From Clostridiales bacterium (GTDB lineage Bacteria > Bacillota > Clostridia > Caldicoprobacterales > UBA3941): 64,000 nucleotides of DNA. The DNA lies in NCBI GenBank assembly GCA_012735575.1, contig JAAYGY010000023.1, positions 10,374 to 74,373 on the forward strand. Direction: 5' to 3'. The notes beneath the pieces are model-generated. The model saw only the letters and a list, made by a program, of their open reading frames with translations, was not told the DNA's origin and searched no databases. How positions within the stretch are numbered: position 1 is the stretch's first letter; each line of letters begins with the position of its first letter. Position numbers and translations under genes: made by a program. Shown here piece by piece: positions 3,062 to 15,541 of the stretch.

Positions 3062-3986
3062 ATTTCCTCCTTTGACGAGTTATGAGATAAAGCAGTGCCA
3101 TACGTATTGCTACGCCATTGGTCACCTGTTCCTGGATGTGAGAATGAATGCCATCTGCTATATCAGATGTAATTTCAATTCCTCTATTTATAGGGCCAGG
3201 ATGCATCAGCAATACATTTTCCTTAGCTAGTTTAAGTCTTTCCTTATTAAGGCCATAGATTTGAGAGTACTCTCGAAGAGAGGGCAATAACCCTTTTTGC
3301 TGGCGTTCTTTCTGTAATCTGAGCACCATTACCACATCTGCCTGATCCACTGCTTCCTCAACGCTATTGCATACTTTTGCTCCTGTTTTATCTAATTCTA
3401 TAGGTAACAATGTAGATGGTCCTGCAACTGCAACTTCAGCACCCATCTTACTCAATCCCCAAATATTGCTACGTGCTACACGGCTATGGTATATGTCGCC
3501 AATGATTGCCACTTTTAATCCCTTTATAGTACCCTTATTTTCCCTTATGGTAAACATATCCAGCAATCCTTGAGTGGGATGTTCGTTCATACCGTCTCCA
3601 GCATTTATAATAGATACATTTACGTGCTTGGCTACAATATGAGCAGCACCGGACATAGGATGACGAATTACAATAACATCTGCTCCCATCCTTTCAATAG
3701 TTTTGCATGTATCTATTAGGCTTTCACCTTTGGAAACACTACTTGAGGAAGCTGAAATATTAGCTGAACTAGCACTCATATATTTACTGGCCAACTCAAA
3801 GGATAGTCGAGTTCTGGTACTATTTTCATAGAAGAGATTAACTATGGACTTGCCTTGAAGATGAGGCGTTCTTTTATTATTTTGCTGTAATATATATTTC
3901 ATAGTTTCAGCAGTATTTAAGATTTCTACAATCTCCTGCTGATTCATGGTTCGAAGTCCTAAAACATCCTTTCTTTTTAAAGCCAT
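3039..3986 (-). CDS. pyrB: aspartate carbamoyltransferase catalytic subunit
   Basis: [23 protein letters not shown] and MHPGPINRG motifs. Start moved to ATG 3986 (MALKRK); ORF track starts at 4043. Confidence 0.96.
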
Positions 3987-4056
3987 GTTTTCACCGCTTT
4001 CTTTGTGGGTATTTACAAAAAAGAGTAATAAGCTATTGCTCACTACTCTTTTGATA

Positions 4057-5283
4057 CTAAATATCTTCAGGTAAGACTTTATTTAAAATTACACCGATTA
4101 ACGCCGCTAGACTCATTCCCGATAGGGTAACTCCTGGGATTAGGGAAAATTCTACACCACTTAACCCCATTACCAACATCAATGAGATAATTATAAGGTT
4201 ACGGCTGTTAGTAAAATCAATTTTAGCATCAGCCAATGTCCTTAAACCTATACTTGCAATCATTCCAAATAGCAGTATACTAACTCCTCCCATTACCGGA
4301 GTAGGGATAGATTGTAAAAGAGCGCCTATTTTGCCACATAGACTTAAAATAATAGCAAATATAGCTGAAAGTCTTAATATAAATGGATTATATACCTTAG
4401 TAACGGCCAATACTCCTGTATTTTCACTATAGGTAGTATTTGCAGGACCACCTAAAAGTCCAGCAAAAGCAGTTGCTACACCATCTCCAATTAAAGTTCG
4501 ATGAAGGCCGGGATCCTGAAAGAAATCCTTGCCCACCACTGCACCATTGGTGGTTATATCTCCTATATGCTCCATGAAGGTAACAATAGCTATTGGTGCT
4601 ATAAGTGAAATAGCTGTAATGTCAAATTTAGGTAACTGAAAATCAGGTATTGCAAAAAAGGGGGCTTCTTTGATAAGTGAAAAGTCCACAAAACCGAAGA
4701 AAATTGACACGATATAACCAACTATAATTCCAAGTAATACAGGTACTAATCTAAAAAAACCTTTTACGAATATGGATACTATAACCATGGTTGCTACCAC
4801 TGCTAAAGCAATAATCCAACGTTGTCCAAGAGTACCTATATCAGCGGTTACAATATTTCCAGATATTACACCAGGACTAAGGGTTAAACCAATTATTGCA
4901 ATCATAGGTCCTGTAACCAGAGGTGGAAAGAAACTGCGAATTTTTTCAACACCAAATATCAACACTAAAATAGCCAACACTACATATAATAAGCCAGCCA
5001 CTATAATTCCTCCACCAGCATAAGCAATACCTTGATTTTGAACTACAGTTTGAATAGCAGCTATAAAAGCAAAACTAGATCCAAGAAATGCAGGAACTTT
5101 TCTTTTTGTGATAAAGTGGAAAATTAAAGTACCAACTCCGGCTGTAAATAGGGCCACTGCTGGATCTAAACCTGTTAACGCAGGTACTAGTACTGTGGCT
5201 CCAAACATGGCAAAAACATGTTGGATAGCTAAAAGAATTGTTTTCCAAGGGTTGAGTTTTGTGTCTTGAATACTTTGTTGCAT
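4057..5283 (-). CDS. uraA: uracil permease (NCS2 family)
   Basis: [14 protein letters not shown] and the NCS2 signature TTYSENTGV. About 12 hydrophobic segments; sits in the pyr operon. Confidence 0.93.
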
Positions 5284-5332
5284 TATAAATCCTCCTTCGT
5301 AAATTTATCATGATTTTTTACAATATATAGGC

Positions 5333-5367
5333 AAAAAAAATGCCTTGATTTTAAAGCTATCAAGGCA
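5333..5367 (-). terminator. attenuator terminator between pyrR and uraA
   Basis: Minus strand TGCCTTGAT-agctttaaa-ATCAAGGCA followed by T8. Confidence 0.85.
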
Positions 5368-5394
5368 CAATACAACAAAATCTTGCTGTATTAT

Positions 5395-6022
<628 letters not shown>

Positions 6023-6071
6023 TTAAAGAGTACATATTATCTCATTTTATTATATATTTCCATATCTTTAA

Positions 6072-6102
6072 CCTTGCCAGACTCACGGGACCAGCTTAAA
6101 GG
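6072..6102 (-). promoter_or_regulatory. PyrR-binding loop 1
   Basis: Minus strand CCTTTAAGCTGGTCCCGTGAGTCTGGCAAGG is a PyrR loop variant with GAGUCU in place of GAGGCU. Confidence 0.85.
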
Positions 6103-6119
6103 TTTTTTTATTTTTAATG

Positions 6120-6148
6120 ATTATATCATATTCTTTATTCACTGTCTA
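6120..6148 (-). promoter_or_regulatory. SigA-type promoter of the pyr operon
   Basis: TAGACA-N17-TATAAT with TGn extended -10. Confidence 0.75.
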
Positions 6149-6152
6149 TACT

Positions 6153-7088
6153 CTATTTAGTATTTTTTGATATACTTCGAAGCTTGGTTAACAATTCAAT
6201 AAAATATGGGGGAAGAGGTGCTCTAAACTCCATAAATTCTCCTGTAGTAGGGTGAACCAAACCTAGCATTATAGCATGGAGTGCTTGACCTTTTAAGTTA
6301 AACTTTTGCTTCTTGGAACCATACATTAGATCACCAACTATTGGGTGTTGAATATAGGACATGTGTACCCGAATCTGATGAGTTCTACCTGTCTCCAATC
6401 TAGCTTCCACTAACGTATATTCCCCAAATCTTTCCAAAACACGAAAATGAGTAACCGCATTCCTACTTCCCGGTCCTGGTATAACAGCCATTTTCTTGCG
6501 ATGTACGGGATGCCGCTTTATAGGTTCATCGATAGTGCCCTCATTTTCTATTATATTGTTTTCTACAATAGCCCAATAGACCCTAAGAAGGCTCCTTTCG
6601 GCAATTTGACGAGCCAGATGATGGTGCGCATGATCATTTTTTGCTATAACCAATAACCCTGAAGTATCTTTGTCTAATCGATGAACTATTCCAGGGCGTA
6701 TCTTTCCATTAATGCCAGAAAGATGTTCACAGTGATACAAGAGTGCATTTACCAGTGTACCTGAATAGTTTCCAGGTGCAGGATGAACTACCATCCCCTG
6801 AGGTTTATTGATGACTGCAATATCATCATCCTGGTATATTATATCCAGTTCTATATTTTCTGGTTCTAAAGATATTTTTGTAGGTGGCGGGATTGAAACT
6901 TCAATCTTTTGTCCTGCTTTAAGTCTATAGTTAGACTTTATTTTCAAGCCATCTACCTCTACCAGTCCGTTTTTTATTATCTCTTGCAAAAAAGAGCGTG
7001 ATAGGTCTGGTAATTTATTTGCCAAGAACTTATCAATACGTTGTCCATTGTAGGATTGATTTACTTGAAAAAAATGTTTCTTATCCAT
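6153..7088 (-). CDS. rluD: RluA/RluD family pseudouridine synthase
   Basis: N-terminal S4 domain (RIDKFL), VHRLDKDTSG and TGRTHQIRVH motifs. Probable start ATG 7088; track starts at 7100. Confidence 0.92.
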   Translation of the reverse strand: MDKKHFFQVNQSYNGQRIDKFLANKLPDLSRSFLQEIIKNGLVEVDGLKIKSNYRLKAGQKIEVSIPPPTKISLEPENIELDIIYQDDDIAVINKPQGMVVHPAPGNYSGTLVNALLYHCEHLSGINGKIRPGIVHRLDKDTSGLLVIAKNDHAHHHLARQIAERSLLRVYWAIVENNIIENEGTIDEPIKRHPVHRKKMAVIPGPGSRNAVTHFRVLERFGEYTLVEARLETGRTHQIRVHMSYIQHPIVGDLMYGSKKQKFNLKGQALHAIMLGLVHPTTGEFMEFRAPLPPYFIELLTKLRSISKNTK

Positions 7089-12656: not shown

Positions 12657-13082
12657 TTATTTGGGGCATATGGTTTTTGTGATTTTTACTTGATTACCAT
12701 TTTCATTGAACTGTATTTTACTACATAAGGCATTGACCAACATCAAGCCTCTTCCCCCTTCGGACATCTTAAGACTATCACATTCAGGAGGATGTTGATA
12801 AAATTTCTTATAATCAAATCCCTGACCTTCATCTTTAATAAAAATATCCAAAGTAGTTGAATCTACTTCTTCAATTGCAACATTAACTTTTTTATTACAA
12901 AATCCCTTATTTCCGTGTAAAATTCCATTGGAAATAAGTTCGTTTAAAACTAAACGAAACTCAAAATACTCATCCTCATTTAATGGATTCCATGCATTAA
13001 TACAATCCATCATTTCATTGATTAATTTTCTCACTTTTAAAGGATTGCTCCCAGTAATCTGTTTTTTAAAGAGCAGTTTCAC
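12657..13082 (-). CDS. RsbW/SpoIIAB-like serine kinase (HATPase_c_2), catalytic motifs intact
   Basis: N-box NELISNGILH, G1 DEGQGF and G2 EGGRGL. Probable start GTG 13082 after GGAGGT; track starts at 13115. Confidence 0.85.
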   Translation of the reverse strand: MKLLFKKQITGSNPLKVRKLINEMMDCINAWNPLNEDEYFEFRLVLNELISNGILHGNKGFCNKKVNVAIEEVDSTTLDIFIKDEGQGFDYKKFYQHPPECDSLKMSEGGRGLMLVNALCSKIQFNENGNQVKITKTICPK

Positions 13083-13116
13083 CAACTTTACCTCCACATA
13101 CTTAATAGTATACATT

Positions 13117-13164
13117 AATTAATTATTATATTTTTACCACAATTAATTATTATATTTTTACCAC
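13117..13164. repeat. perfect 24-bp tandem duplication
   Basis: AATTAATTATTATATTTTTACCAC at 13117-13140 and again at 13141-13164. Confidence 0.97.
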
Positions 13165-13183
13165 TTTTACAATGATATAAAAC
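13158..13183 (-). promoter_or_regulatory. candidate SigB-type promoter for the downstream kinase gene
   Basis: Minus strand GTTTTA-N14-TGGTAA against the SigB consensus GTTTWW-N12-14-GGGWAW. Confidence 0.5.
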
Positions 13184-13210
13184 ATTGAATGATCGAATTG
13201 AGTCTTATTC

Positions 13211-13972
13211 TTATATAGTTCTCTTTATATAGGATCTAAATCGCTCCAATAGTCTCCGTTCCATTCGGGAAATATACATTTGAGACACTCCAATCTCTTC
13301 AGCTATCTCTCTTTGGCTACGTTCATTGTAAAAACGTTCATAAAGTACCTTTTTTTCTGTATCTCCCAAACCAGACATGATTTTTTCTATGACGTCTCTA
13401 TCCTCCACTAAAGAATAATTCTTTTCTTCCTTGCCAACCATTGCCATTAAATCAGTTTCGTTATTTTCATCAATATAATAGTCTAAGGAAGCAGTATTAG
13501 TAAGATAACTGGACTCCATAAGCTCTAAAACTTCTTCAGTGGAAATATTTAGATATTCACCAATCTCTTCTGGCTTGGGACTTCGTCCTAATTGATTGGA
13601 TAAATGTGCTTTGGCACTTTCTACTTTTTTTATCATTTCGCTTTCTTTGCGTGGTAAACGTATTATCCGGCTCTTGTCTCGAAAATGATTTTTAATTTCT
13701 CCAATTATGGTAGGTGTGGCAAAACTTGAAAACTTATATCCTCTGTTTATATCAAAACGTTCCAAAGCCTTTATCAAGGCCAAAGAGGCCACTTGAAATA
13801 AATCGTCGTATTCAACTCCTCTATTGACAAATTTTTTGGCGATTATTTCTGCAATATAAAGATAATGCTGGACTAGCTCATTTCTAAGATTAATATCACG
13901 AGTTTCAGAATATTCTCTAAGTAGTCTTTCTATATTATCATTTTCGGTCGCATTATTTCTTTTTGCACTCAT
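13211..13972 (-). CDS. sigB: SigB/SigF/SigG family sigma factor, SigB-like
   Basis: DDLFQVASLALIKALERFD, FATPTIIGEIK.HFRDK and SQREIAEEIGVSQMYISR motifs; gene order rsbV-rsbW-sigma. Confidence 0.8.
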   Translation of the reverse strand: MSAKRNNATENDNIERLLREYSETRDINLRNELVQHYLYIAEIIAKKFVNRGVEYDDLFQVASLALIKALERFDINRGYKFSSFATPTIIGEIKNHFRDKSRIIRLPRKESEMIKKVESAKAHLSNQLGRSPKPEEIGEYLNISTEEVLELMESSYLTNTASLDYYIDENNETDLMAMVGKEEKNYSLVEDRDVIEKIMSGLGDTEKKVLYERFYNERSQREIAEEIGVSQMYISRMERRLLERFRSYIKRTI

Positions 13973-13975
13973 TAA

Positions 13976-14374
13976 TCAATTAGACCCCCCACAACCTTTA
14001 TGCATACATACTGCCCTCATTATACCATTATCAGTTTTAAATTCTACATTATCCATCATAGAGCCTAAAATATATCTACTTAACTGGGCCTGGTCTATAT
14101 CTTGCACTGATACATTGCTTTCTACCCATTCTCCTTGTCCAGAAATATCAATATGAATCTCTTCATTTAAATTTTCAAATCTTATCAATAGCTCCATAGG
14201 CCTTACTACCTGATTAAGAACAAGTATTATTGCTTCTGCCACTGACATTTTTATATCCTCTATTTGATCAATATCAAAGCCTAATCTGCTGGCAAAAGCT
14301 GCACTGGTTAAACGTGCCACCATTACATATTCTGGCTTAGCAGGTACTGTCAAAGTAATAATATCATTGCTCAT
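13976..14374 (-). CDS. rsbW: RsbW-like anti-sigma factor with degenerate kinase motifs
   Basis: N-terminus typical of RsbW (VPAKPEYVMVARL...GFDIDQIEDIK.SVAEA) and position between rsbV and sigB. N, G1 and G2 boxes are lost. Confidence 0.75.
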   Translation of the reverse strand: MSNDIITLTVPAKPEYVMVARLTSAAFASRLGFDIDQIEDIKMSVAEAIILVLNQVVRPMELLIRFENLNEEIHIDISGQGEWVESNVSVQDIDQAQLSRYILGSMMDNVEFKTDNGIMRAVCMHKGCGGSN

Positions 14375-14694
14375 ACTTCTTGCACCTCTATTGTAAAAAT
14401 TTTATCAAGGCCAGTTATGACGAAAATCTTGTGTATATAAGGTTTTAGATTCTTAATGGTGATCTGACCATCATATTCCTTAACTCGTCTTAAGGCACTG
14501 ATTAAAACCCCTAGGCCTGTGCTATCAATATAGGTTAAGTTCTCACAATTTAGTATAATATTTCCAGGATGCTGCTCTATAAGTTTATGTAACCTCTCTT
14601 TTAGTTCGGGCGCATTGTATATATCAATTTCACCATCTAAAGAAATGCACCAGGTATTGGTTTCAGATTTAAATTTCTCTTTTAAAACCACCAC
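14371..14694 (-). CDS. rsbV: STAS anti-sigma factor antagonist
   Basis: GEIDIYNAP.LK and LTYIDSTGLGVLI (phosphoacceptor Ser). GTG 14694 follows AAGGAG; track starts at 14745. Confidence 0.88.
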   Translation of the reverse strand: MVVLKEKFKSETNTWCISLDGEIDIYNAPELKERLHKLIEQHPGNIILNCENLTYIDSTGLGVLISALRRVKEYDGQITIKNLKPYIHKIFVITGLDKIFTIEVQEV

Positions 14695-14791
14695 TGTAAT
14701 GCTCCTTTCTTCTTTTGTTTTTTTATAGCATATTTTTAATATCATTCTATTTATCTACAATGGACTTTTTCTTGAATCAAATATTATAAAT

Positions 14792-14800
14792 ATTATACCA
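14792..14800 (-). promoter_or_regulatory. extended -10 SigA promoter candidate for rsbV-rsbW-sigB
   Basis: Minus strand TGGTATAAT (TGnTATAAT). Confidence 0.45.
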
Positions 14801-14997: not shown

Positions 14998-15074
14998 CGG
15001 GGTGTAGCGCAGTTTGGTAGCGCACGTGCTTTGGGAGCATGGGGCCGGGGGTTCAAATCCCTCCACCCCGACCA
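14998..15074 (+). tRNA. tRNA-Pro(TGG)
   Basis: Cloverleaf CGGGGTG/CACCCCG, anticodon loop TTTGGGA, TTCAAAT, encoded CCA. Confidence 0.97.
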
Positions 15075-15092
15075 TTATAGCTTTCGATTTGT

Positions 15093-15167
15093 GGCCCCTT
15101 GGTCAAGCGGTTAAGACACCGCCCTTTCACGGCGGTAACAGGGGTTCGAGTCCCCTAGGGGTCACCA
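15093..15167 (+). tRNA. tRNA-Glu(TTC)
   Basis: GGCCCCT/AGGGGTC acceptor, anticodon stem CCGCC/GGCGG with loop CTTTCAC, CCA. Confidence 0.97.
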
Positions 15168-15175
15168 TAATTTAA

Positions 15176-15252
15176 GGGCCTTTAGCTCAGTTGGTTAGAG
15201 CAACCGGCTCATAACCGGTCGGTCCGGGGTTCGAGTCCCTGAAGGCCCACCA
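15176..15252 (+). tRNA. tRNA-Ile2(CAT), lysidine type (not Met)
   Basis: CAT anticodon in GGCTCATAACC context and GGGCCTTTAGCTCAG 5' end resemble Firmicute tRNA-Ile2 rather than elongator or initiator Met. Confidence 0.85.
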
Positions 15253-15263
15253 TTTTTCATATT

Positions 15264-15340
15264 GGCCCGGTAGTTCAGTTGGTTAGAATGCCAGCCTGTC
15301 ACGCTGGAGGTCGAGGGTTCGAGTCCCTTCCGGGTCGCCA
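15264..15340 (+). tRNA. tRNA-Asp(GTC)
   Basis: Anticodon loop CTGTCAC, TTCGAGT, CCA. Confidence 0.97.
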
Positions 15341-15348
15341 TATTTTTT

Positions 15349-15424
15349 GCCTCGGTAGCTCAGTTGGTAGAGCAGCAGACTGAAAATCTGCGTGTCGGTG
15401 GTTCGATTCCGCCCCGAGGCACCA
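15349..15424 (+). tRNA. tRNA-Phe(GAA)
   Basis: GCCTCGG/CCGAGGC acceptor, loop CTGAAAA, CCA. Confidence 0.97.
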
Positions 15425-15453
15425 TCTATTTTGTGTAAGTATTATAAAGATAT

Positions 15454-15541
15454 GCGAAAGTGGCGGAATTGGCAGACGCGCTAGATTCAGGTTCTAGTGA
15501 ACAATAAGTTCATGGGGGTTCGACTCCCCCCTTTCGCACCA
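15454..15541 (+). tRNA. tRNA-Leu(CAG)
   Basis: GCGAAAG/CTTTCGC acceptor, loop TTCAGGT, long variable arm TGAAC-aataa-GTTCA, CCA. Confidence 0.96.

Follow-up and report, generated by a model that had tools for sequence, protein, structure and literature searches.

A SigB-type sigma factor locus of Clostridia with an RsbW-like pseudokinase and a separate kinase-type gene

Four genes and two RsbW-like proteins

The window analysed here is a stretch of 64,000 nucleotides (nt) from a Clostridiales bacterium (contig JAAYGY010000023.1, positions 10,374–74,373), and our subject is a locus on its minus strand that encodes a sigma factor together with two RsbW-like proteins, one that has lost its ATP-binding boxes and one that keeps them. 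Four co-oriented open reading frames (ORFs) are present in the order STAS (rsbV)–psW–sigma–KIN, in agreement with an initial annotation that had described an rsbV–rsbW–sigB arrangement plus a second RsbW-like gene. The rsbV-like gene (14371–14694, minus strand) encodes a STAS anti-sigma antagonist of 107 residues (Pfam STAS, 81 bits; TIGR00377, 92 bits) and starts with a GTG codon preceded by the ribosome-binding site AAAGGAG; in its longest version, this ORF begins at 14745. The start of psW (13976–14374, minus strand; 132 residues) overlaps the rsbV stop codon (ATGA), and its product is classed as an RsbW-like pseudokinase and presumed anti-sigma factor from motif loss, profile scores and an AlphaFold2 (AF2) model. 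The sigma gene (13211–13972, minus strand) begins 3 nt past the psW stop codon and encodes a 253-residue protein of the SigB/SigF/SigG family with Sigma70 regions 2, 3 and 4 all present. A gap of ∼125 nt separates it from KIN (12657–13082/13085, minus strand), a single-domain HATPase_c_2 protein of the Ser-kinase type (141–142 residues) whose homologues start at MKLLFKK. All of the motif strings quoted in the initial annotation are found in the translations: IDSTGLG in RsbV; VAEAIILVLNQ, DISGQG and QLSRYILGS in psW; and NELISNGILH, DEGQGF and EGGRGL in KIN.

Alignment of psW with Bacillus subtilis RsbW (PDB 6M36) indicates that none of the three GHKL ATP boxes is left in the protein that occupies the RsbW slot: (i) the N-box Asn is missing, the segment reading E47-A-I-I-L51 with Leu51 at the position of B. 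subtilis Asn53; (ii) the G1 Asp is absent and no DxGxG can be found; and (iii) the GGLG of G2 is replaced by AQLS. The ATP lid is ∼12 residues shorter than that of B. subtilis RsbW in the alignment, and in the psW model a 5-residue loop (residues 86–90) joins β3 to α3 in its place. This alignment bears out the triple loss that had been read from the motifs alone. The match to the Pfam HATPase_c_2 profile is weak (31.2 bits; cut-off 27.4). The NCBIfam equivalog cut-offs are not reached, either for RsbW (72 bits versus 145–155) or for SpoIIAB (36 bits versus 135).

The overall architecture of psW is nevertheless that of an RsbW. The AF2 model (predicted local distance difference test score, pLDDT, 90; predicted template modelling score 0.86) has a GHKL-type α/β fold with an N-terminal β1–α1 docking/dimerization element, and the top Foldseek matches in the PDB are RsbW 6M36 (template modelling score up to 0.93 on the target), SpoIIAB and Mycobacterium tuberculosis UsfX, the resemblance to the last extending to the structures 8JZT and 8IH8. 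Over the first 50 residues, psW shares 40–50% with B. subtilis RsbW. Of the six residues that contact RsbV through hydrogen bonds in the B. subtilis crystal structure, five are kept (R21, D40, K42, E47 and Y101, corresponding to B. subtilis R23, D42, K44, E49 and Y118), and the sixth, B. subtilis S48, is Ala in psW. Given these contacts, psW plausibly still exchanges RsbV for sigma, but without phosphorylating it. Binding and inhibition of the cognate sigma factor by psW is presumed from gene position and from the conserved N-terminal half. We also considered whether psW is simply a decaying pseudogene. It is the fastest-evolving of the four genes, but a ratio of nonsynonymous to synonymous substitutions (dN/dS) of ∼0.08 relative to the nearest relative points to purifying selection and 34–83% identity is kept across the order, and this reading was rejected.

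KIN, by contrast with psW, retains the catalytic Glu, the N-box Asn (NELISNGILHG), G1 (DEGQGF) and G2 (GGRGL). The N box NELxxN, G1 DxGxG and G2 GRGL are invariant or nearly so across 41 loci, and the AF2 model (pLDDT 83) has an ATP lid and matches RsbW and SpoIIAB. The KIN translation and its HATPase_c_2 score (59 bits) thus confirm that the second gene keeps its boxes, as the initial annotation had stated. KIN also lies below the equivalog cut-offs (RsbW, 38 bits versus 145; SpoIIAB, 32 bits versus 135) and, judged by these scores, is a lineage separate from both the RsbW and the SpoIIAB equivalogs. No similarity was detectable between the psW and KIN profiles (hhalign probability ∼1%), and we rejected the idea that the two are recent duplicates on this ground.

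The remaining two proteins are also conserved. The phospho-acceptor Ser of RsbV (YIDSTGLG), which the initial annotation had noted as retained, is invariant in 40/40 homologous loci. The sigma factor is 70–95% identical across the order; it scores 232 bits against TIGR02980 (SigB/F/G subfamily; cut-off 234.35), and its best equivalog is SigB at 180 bits versus a cut-off of 315. The SigB label given earlier draws on family membership and, as described below, promoter type, and is not matched at the equivalog level. We consider it probable that these genes form a split partner switch, in which kinase-dead psW would hold the sigma factor and a separately promoted KIN would re-phosphorylate RsbV.

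Promoters and expression of the module

The spacer between sigma and KIN contains a predicted SigB-type promoter (13153–13184, minus strand), recognized as a conserved motif and composed of TGTTTTA, 17 nt between GTTT and GGTA, and then GGTAAAAATAT. The corresponding spacer in 22/22 loci of the order contains TGTTTyr, 16–17 nt between GTTT and GGTA, and then GGTA(A/G)AAATAT. This motif fits the SigB-type consensus GTTT-N-GGGTA (compared in the form GTTT-N(12-15)-GGGTA). Most of the 19 loci from outside the order have a GGGTA −10 with a G/ATTT −35; in these families the −10 (GGGTAwAwAT) lies just past the sigma stop codon and the −35 (GTTT or ATTT) frequently falls within the final codons of sigma. 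When a matrix derived from the KIN-promoter sites was used to scan the genome, the KIN promoter was the top-scoring site, and 15 sites reached at least 18 bits, compared with 1–2 in composition-preserving shuffles. Use of SigB-type promoters by this sigma factor is what we infer from the motif and its conservation. The next-best sites (C100:463, C72:37393, C72:29935, C56:25619 and C39:6522) precede genes for rubredoxin, desulfoferrodoxin (superoxide reductase), a GTP-type PEP carboxykinase, pyruvate formate-lyase and an ArsP_2-type membrane protein. These sites, taken from the source genome alone, hint at a candidate regulon of oxygen/redox functions and central metabolism.

The promoter predicted for the front of the operon is of a different type. 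An extended −10 of the SigA type, TGgTATAAT, can be read from the sequence upstream of rsbV (14792–14800, minus strand), and TGnTATAAT is found there in 22/22 loci of the order, where no SigB-type motif (GTTT..GGGTA) is present upstream of rsbV. A matrix scan for the SigB-type promoter upstream of rsbV in six of the 14 three-gene loci described in the next section gave nothing convincing. We found no terminator-like hairpin in the sigma–KIN interval. With no terminator ahead of it and a putative SigB-type promoter of its own, KIN is probably expressed by basal read-through plus sigma-dependent induction.

Two tandem duplications touch these promoters. An exact 24-nt duplication in the source genome, GTGGTAAAAATATAATAATTAATT present twice (13117–13164, no strand assigned; Tandem Repeats Finder period 24, 2.0 copies, 100% match), repeats the −10 of the KIN promoter; both same-genus loci (L015 and L016) have a single copy of the unit. 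The second copy lacks a −35 and so probably just lengthens the 5′ leader. In another relative, L022 (about 440–670, upstream of STAS), it is the rsbV promoter region, TGaTATAAT with ∼70 nt after it, that occurs twice in tandem.

The promoter layout bears on a different assignment of roles, in which KIN is the true anti-sigma factor as well as the RsbV kinase, that is, a displaced classical RsbW, and psW is a decoy, an adaptor or an anti-anti-sigma-like accessory. Such an accessory could be likened to RsbW3 of Mycobacterium smegmatis, whose partner is RsbW1 rather than the sigma factor (PMC7693655); RsbW3 provides a precedent for kinase-less RsbW paralogues with roles other than that of an anti-sigma factor, and KIN has the full RsbW/SpoIIAB architecture with all of its ATP boxes. 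A sigma-dependent promoter is, however, ill-suited to a protein that has to hold sigma before induction. Moreover, the translationally coupled slot beside sigma is occupied by psW and not by KIN, the N-terminal docking half of RsbW and the RsbV contacts are found in psW whereas the N-terminus of KIN is dissimilar, and the intact M. smegmatis kinase RsbW2 does not bind SigF. We regard this assignment as unlikely.

Distribution in Clostridia and candidate phosphatases

To place the locus among its relatives, species-representative genomes were scanned for related loci, both within its own order, Caldicoprobacterales, and in other families of the class. The 21 close loci come from Caldicoprobacterales or ‘Clostridiales’ metagenome-assembled genomes (MAGs), mostly from anaerobic digesters, and all 21 have the order STAS–psW–sigma–KIN–HlyD_2–YggS. 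Among the loci fetched from other Clostridia families, 18/20 have the order STAS–psW–sigma–KIN. The synteny survey called for at the outset thus finds the second gene linked to sigma inside and outside the order, and the module is not special to the source genome: 39 further loci, spread Clostridia-wide, share the arrangement. KIN is present in 34/39 genomes and 19/20 genera of the order, where the genomes that lack KIN also lack sigma, and a KIN-like gene is found in 74/399 sampled genomes of the class. Ruminiclostridium cellulolyticum (ACL74784–ACL74786) and Thermoclostridium stercorarium carry the four-gene module, and RefSeq gives psW and KIN in these species no more specific name than ‘ATP-binding protein’ or ‘anti-sigma regulatory factor’. 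The former label hides that psW, as read from its lost boxes, cannot bind ATP, and is an annotation to correct.

The state of the RsbW-slot protein differs with the presence of KIN. In the four-gene loci, this protein is short (127–135 residues) with all three boxes missing; it is dead in 40/40 interpretable loci with a linked KIN, and the N-box Asn is missing in all 40. For comparison, we fetched 20 sigma loci without a linked KIN from Clostridia, a class in which a sigma-factor search finds a related sigma in ∼33% of sampled genomes. Fourteen of the 20 consist of three genes only and encode a full-length RsbW with EACTNA, DxGxG and GLG intact, and the genomes that carry them gave no KIN-like match in the class-wide KIN search. 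The remaining loci have a short degenerate RsbW, and one of them has a weak KIN directly downstream. Within families f33 and f54, the RsbW-slot proteins of L129, L138, L139 and L140 are 111–128 residues long and have no ATP boxes.

The strict co-occurrence of the two genes would suit an obligate pseudokinase–kinase hetero-oligomer, with psW as the docking face for sigma and RsbV and KIN as the catalytic subunit, and the β1–α1 element of RsbW dimerization is seen in both models. Against such a complex, the different promoters imply that the stoichiometry would shift, the N-terminal dimer elements are dissimilar in sequence and KIN is unlinked in some families. We think an obligate complex of this kind quite improbable.

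Two loci depart from the usual gene row. L110, from a 1.2-Mb Clostridia genome (G160:C6:1400–9900, about 3269–5557), has STAS, psW, KIN and REC-PP2C genes consecutively and no sigma gene. This row ties KIN to a STAS/phosphatase pair, and the locus is a partner switch that acts on something other than a neighbouring sigma factor. A long-read MAG (L035, JBMNJE010000009.1) has a second copy of the module at 4445–6416 in which STAS and KIN are frameshifted and psW is truncated; this is either a pseudogenized duplicate or the product of long-read indel errors.

A phosphatase for RsbV has to be sought elsewhere. As the initial annotation had noted, no PP2C phosphatase lies in the window; the genome has four SpoIIE-family (PP2C) matches, all on other contigs. 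A 568-residue membrane protein, MASE3-PP2C, is encoded outside the window at C89:11905–13611 and is present at full length in 16/16 sampled genomes of the order. In the rest of the class, the sigma factor is likewise present in 38/39 other holders of a full-length MASE3-PP2C, as opposed to ∼33% of genomes in general, in a comparison that is not corrected for kinship; these sigma-carrying holders include both split and canonical module types. An RsbY-like REC-PP2C (384 residues), also outside the window, lies at C67:21530–25476; the surrounding che-like cluster encodes CheY-like receivers and CheC/CheX-like proteins and includes a short gene of the CheR type. This REC-PP2C was downgraded as the likely phosphatase because only two of the order’s four families have orthologues of it. 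On this distribution, MASE3-PP2C ranks first among the candidate input phosphatases and the C67 REC-PP2C second.

The genome also encodes two further small STAS proteins, which raises the question of whether RsbV is the substrate of KIN at all. KIN might instead act on an orphan STAS protein (on C42 or C23) or on a non-STAS protein and be no more than a regulon member, with RsbV working free of phosphorylation; the C23 STAS gene has a weak SigB-type motif upstream. This would leave unexplained why the RsbV Ser never varies when psW is unable to phosphorylate it, and it sits poorly with the complementary distributions of intact RsbW and KIN and with the position of KIN next to STAS and PP2C genes in the sigma-less L110. 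We rate it as very unlikely. Phosphorylation of the conserved STAS Ser by KIN is instead the activity to which the invariant Ser and the distribution complementary to intact RsbW both point.

Beyond the module itself, the four genes have a tRNA cluster on one side and, on the other, the division cluster with its ylmE/sepF end. The tRNA genes number six (Pro, Glu, Met, Asp, Phe and Leu; 14998–15541, plus strand) and occupy an apparent 835-nt gap between cheR and rsbV, and the cheR/tRNA cluster/rsbV neighbourhood is retained in several relatives. The locus is not the sporulation spoIIA operon, an identity that we rejected since a canonical spoIIAA–spoIIAB–sigF–spoVA locus sits separately on contig C30.

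The proposed circuit and its relation to known systems

In the split partner switch that we favour, psW would be made from the SigA-driven rsbV–psW–sigma transcript and, lacking a lid, would bind either sigma or unphosphorylated RsbV with no use of ATP. KIN would phosphorylate the conserved Ser of RsbV and so disable the antagonist, and a PP2C encoded elsewhere (MASE3-PP2C being the best candidate) would remove the phosphate under stress. Sigma set free in this way would raise the level of KIN, RsbV would be re-phosphorylated and sigma would return to psW, giving a purely negative feedback. For this circuit we infer all of the protein contacts, the phosphotransfer itself and which phosphatase takes part. 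The idea of a pseudokinase holder with a separate kinase, already put forward in the initial annotation, gains support from the gene order shared by 39 loci, the complementary distribution, the invariant Ser and boxes and the KIN promoter, while the roles given to the individual proteins stay putative. Gene position and promoter layout speak against the three alternatives considered above, as do the RsbV contacts kept by psW, the lack of variation at the RsbV Ser and the way in which intact RsbW and KIN complement each other in distribution.

Several observations weigh against this interpretation. KIN accompanies a dead RsbW and is missing where RsbW is live, as expected if KIN supplies the lost kinase activity, but the counts behind this pattern take no account of shared ancestry. 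The dissimilarity of the psW and KIN profiles implies that KIN is not a simple sub-functionalized duplicate, and KIN, as a complete RsbW-like protein, could itself bind sigma. Its −35 is weaker (ATTTTA, within the sigma coding sequence) in several loci from outside the order. One genome of the order (G015) has kept MASE3-PP2C and lost the sigma module. Finally, in the f33 and f54 loci L129, L138, L139 and L140 a dead RsbW stands beside sigma with no adjacent KIN, and one of these genomes (G409) gave no KIN-like match at E ≤ 1e-8. An unlinked KIN-like gene is found elsewhere in three of the f33/f54 genomes, and the arrangement in these families may represent a further step of the split.

More tentatively, the system in much of the Clostridia, culturable cellulolytic species among them, could be a purely negative-feedback or pulse circuit that arose independently of the mycobacterial split, in which sigma, anti-sigma and antagonist would be constitutive from the SigA-type promoter, only KIN would be sigma-induced and MASE3-PP2C would serve as the conserved input sensor. 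The candidate regulon would make its output a pulse of oxygen/redox adaptation. MASE3-PP2C is nominated as a stress input for this sigma family. The module also offers a natural experiment, with the anti-sigma function genetically separable, on this reading, from that of the kinase and with the 14 three-gene relatives as controls. It is also present in tractable hosts, for example, R. cellulolyticum and T. stercorarium. A literature search, whose coverage was not exhaustive, found no description of the clostridial four-gene module, and a review enters the function of SigB as ‘not reported’ for both C. thermocellum and C. cellulolyticum.

The closest textbook parallels are the RsbV–RsbW–SigB and SpoIIAA–SpoIIAB–SigF systems of B. 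subtilis, with which the locus shares the order of antagonist, anti-sigma and sigma, in genes that overlap or adjoin one another. It further has the DSTGLG phospho-Ser, an RsbW fold, the RsbV-contact residues and a predicted promoter of the GTTT-N-GGGTA type in common with B. subtilis. Unlike B. subtilis, where one RsbW does both jobs, the slot protein here is kinase-dead and the fourth gene, KIN, would supply the kinase. The sigma-type promoter is found only on the kinase gene, whereas the whole rsbV–rsbW–sigB–rsbX unit of B. subtilis is induced by sigma-B, and the window contains neither RsbU/RsbP nor stressosome genes. Since B. subtilis rsbW is itself sigma-B induced, the textbook circuit also has delayed negative feedback.

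Within the class Clostridia, a comparison can be made with the sigB operon of Clostridioides difficile (rsbV–rsbW–sigB), which is driven by sigma-A only, has no positive autoregulation and relies on a PP2C, RsbZ, that is encoded elsewhere. The SigA-type promoter on the operon and the placement of the PP2C outside the locus are shared with the system described here. The RsbW of this species is, however, reported to be an active kinase, and its operon matches the three-gene, intact-RsbW class of the 14 other Clostridia loci and not with the split type.

A division of labour between anti-sigma factor and kinase is already established by experiment in M. smegmatis, and the suggestion that such logic is absent from known circuits was overstated. 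There, RsbW1, encoded beside sigF, is an anti-sigma factor with no kinase activity (Oh et al. 2020, PMC7693655), while RsbW2, in which N, G1 and G2 are intact, does not bind SigF and is the sole kinase of RsfB Ser-63; a REC-PP2C encoded next to rsbW2 dephosphorylates RsfB (PMC7693655). The clostridial locus resembles this system in combining a kinase-less protein of the anti-sigma type beside the sigma gene with a separate kinase-type protein that has intact boxes. Inactivation of the STAS antagonist by phospho-Ser, opposed by a PP2C, is found in M. smegmatis and would apply here as well. The layouts differ. The mycobacterial kinase is co-transcribed with its substrate (rsfB–rsbW2) at a distant site where a histidine kinase and the REC-PP2C are encoded alongside, whereas in the clostridial locus the antagonist gene is grouped with those of the pseudokinase and sigma, and KIN follows sigma behind a sigma-type promoter. 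Only in the sigma-less L110 is KIN adjacent to a REC-PP2C. The clostridial system also belongs to a different phylum and lacks, within its locus, an additional antagonist of the RsfA or RsbW3 type, and an origin independent of the mycobacterial split seems likely. The points of difference from mycobacteria are the phylum, the gene arrangement and a sigma-type promoter dedicated to the kinase. The comparison suggests that loss of kinase activity from the anti-sigma factor has been compensated by a dedicated kinase at least twice, in Actinobacteria and in Clostridia.

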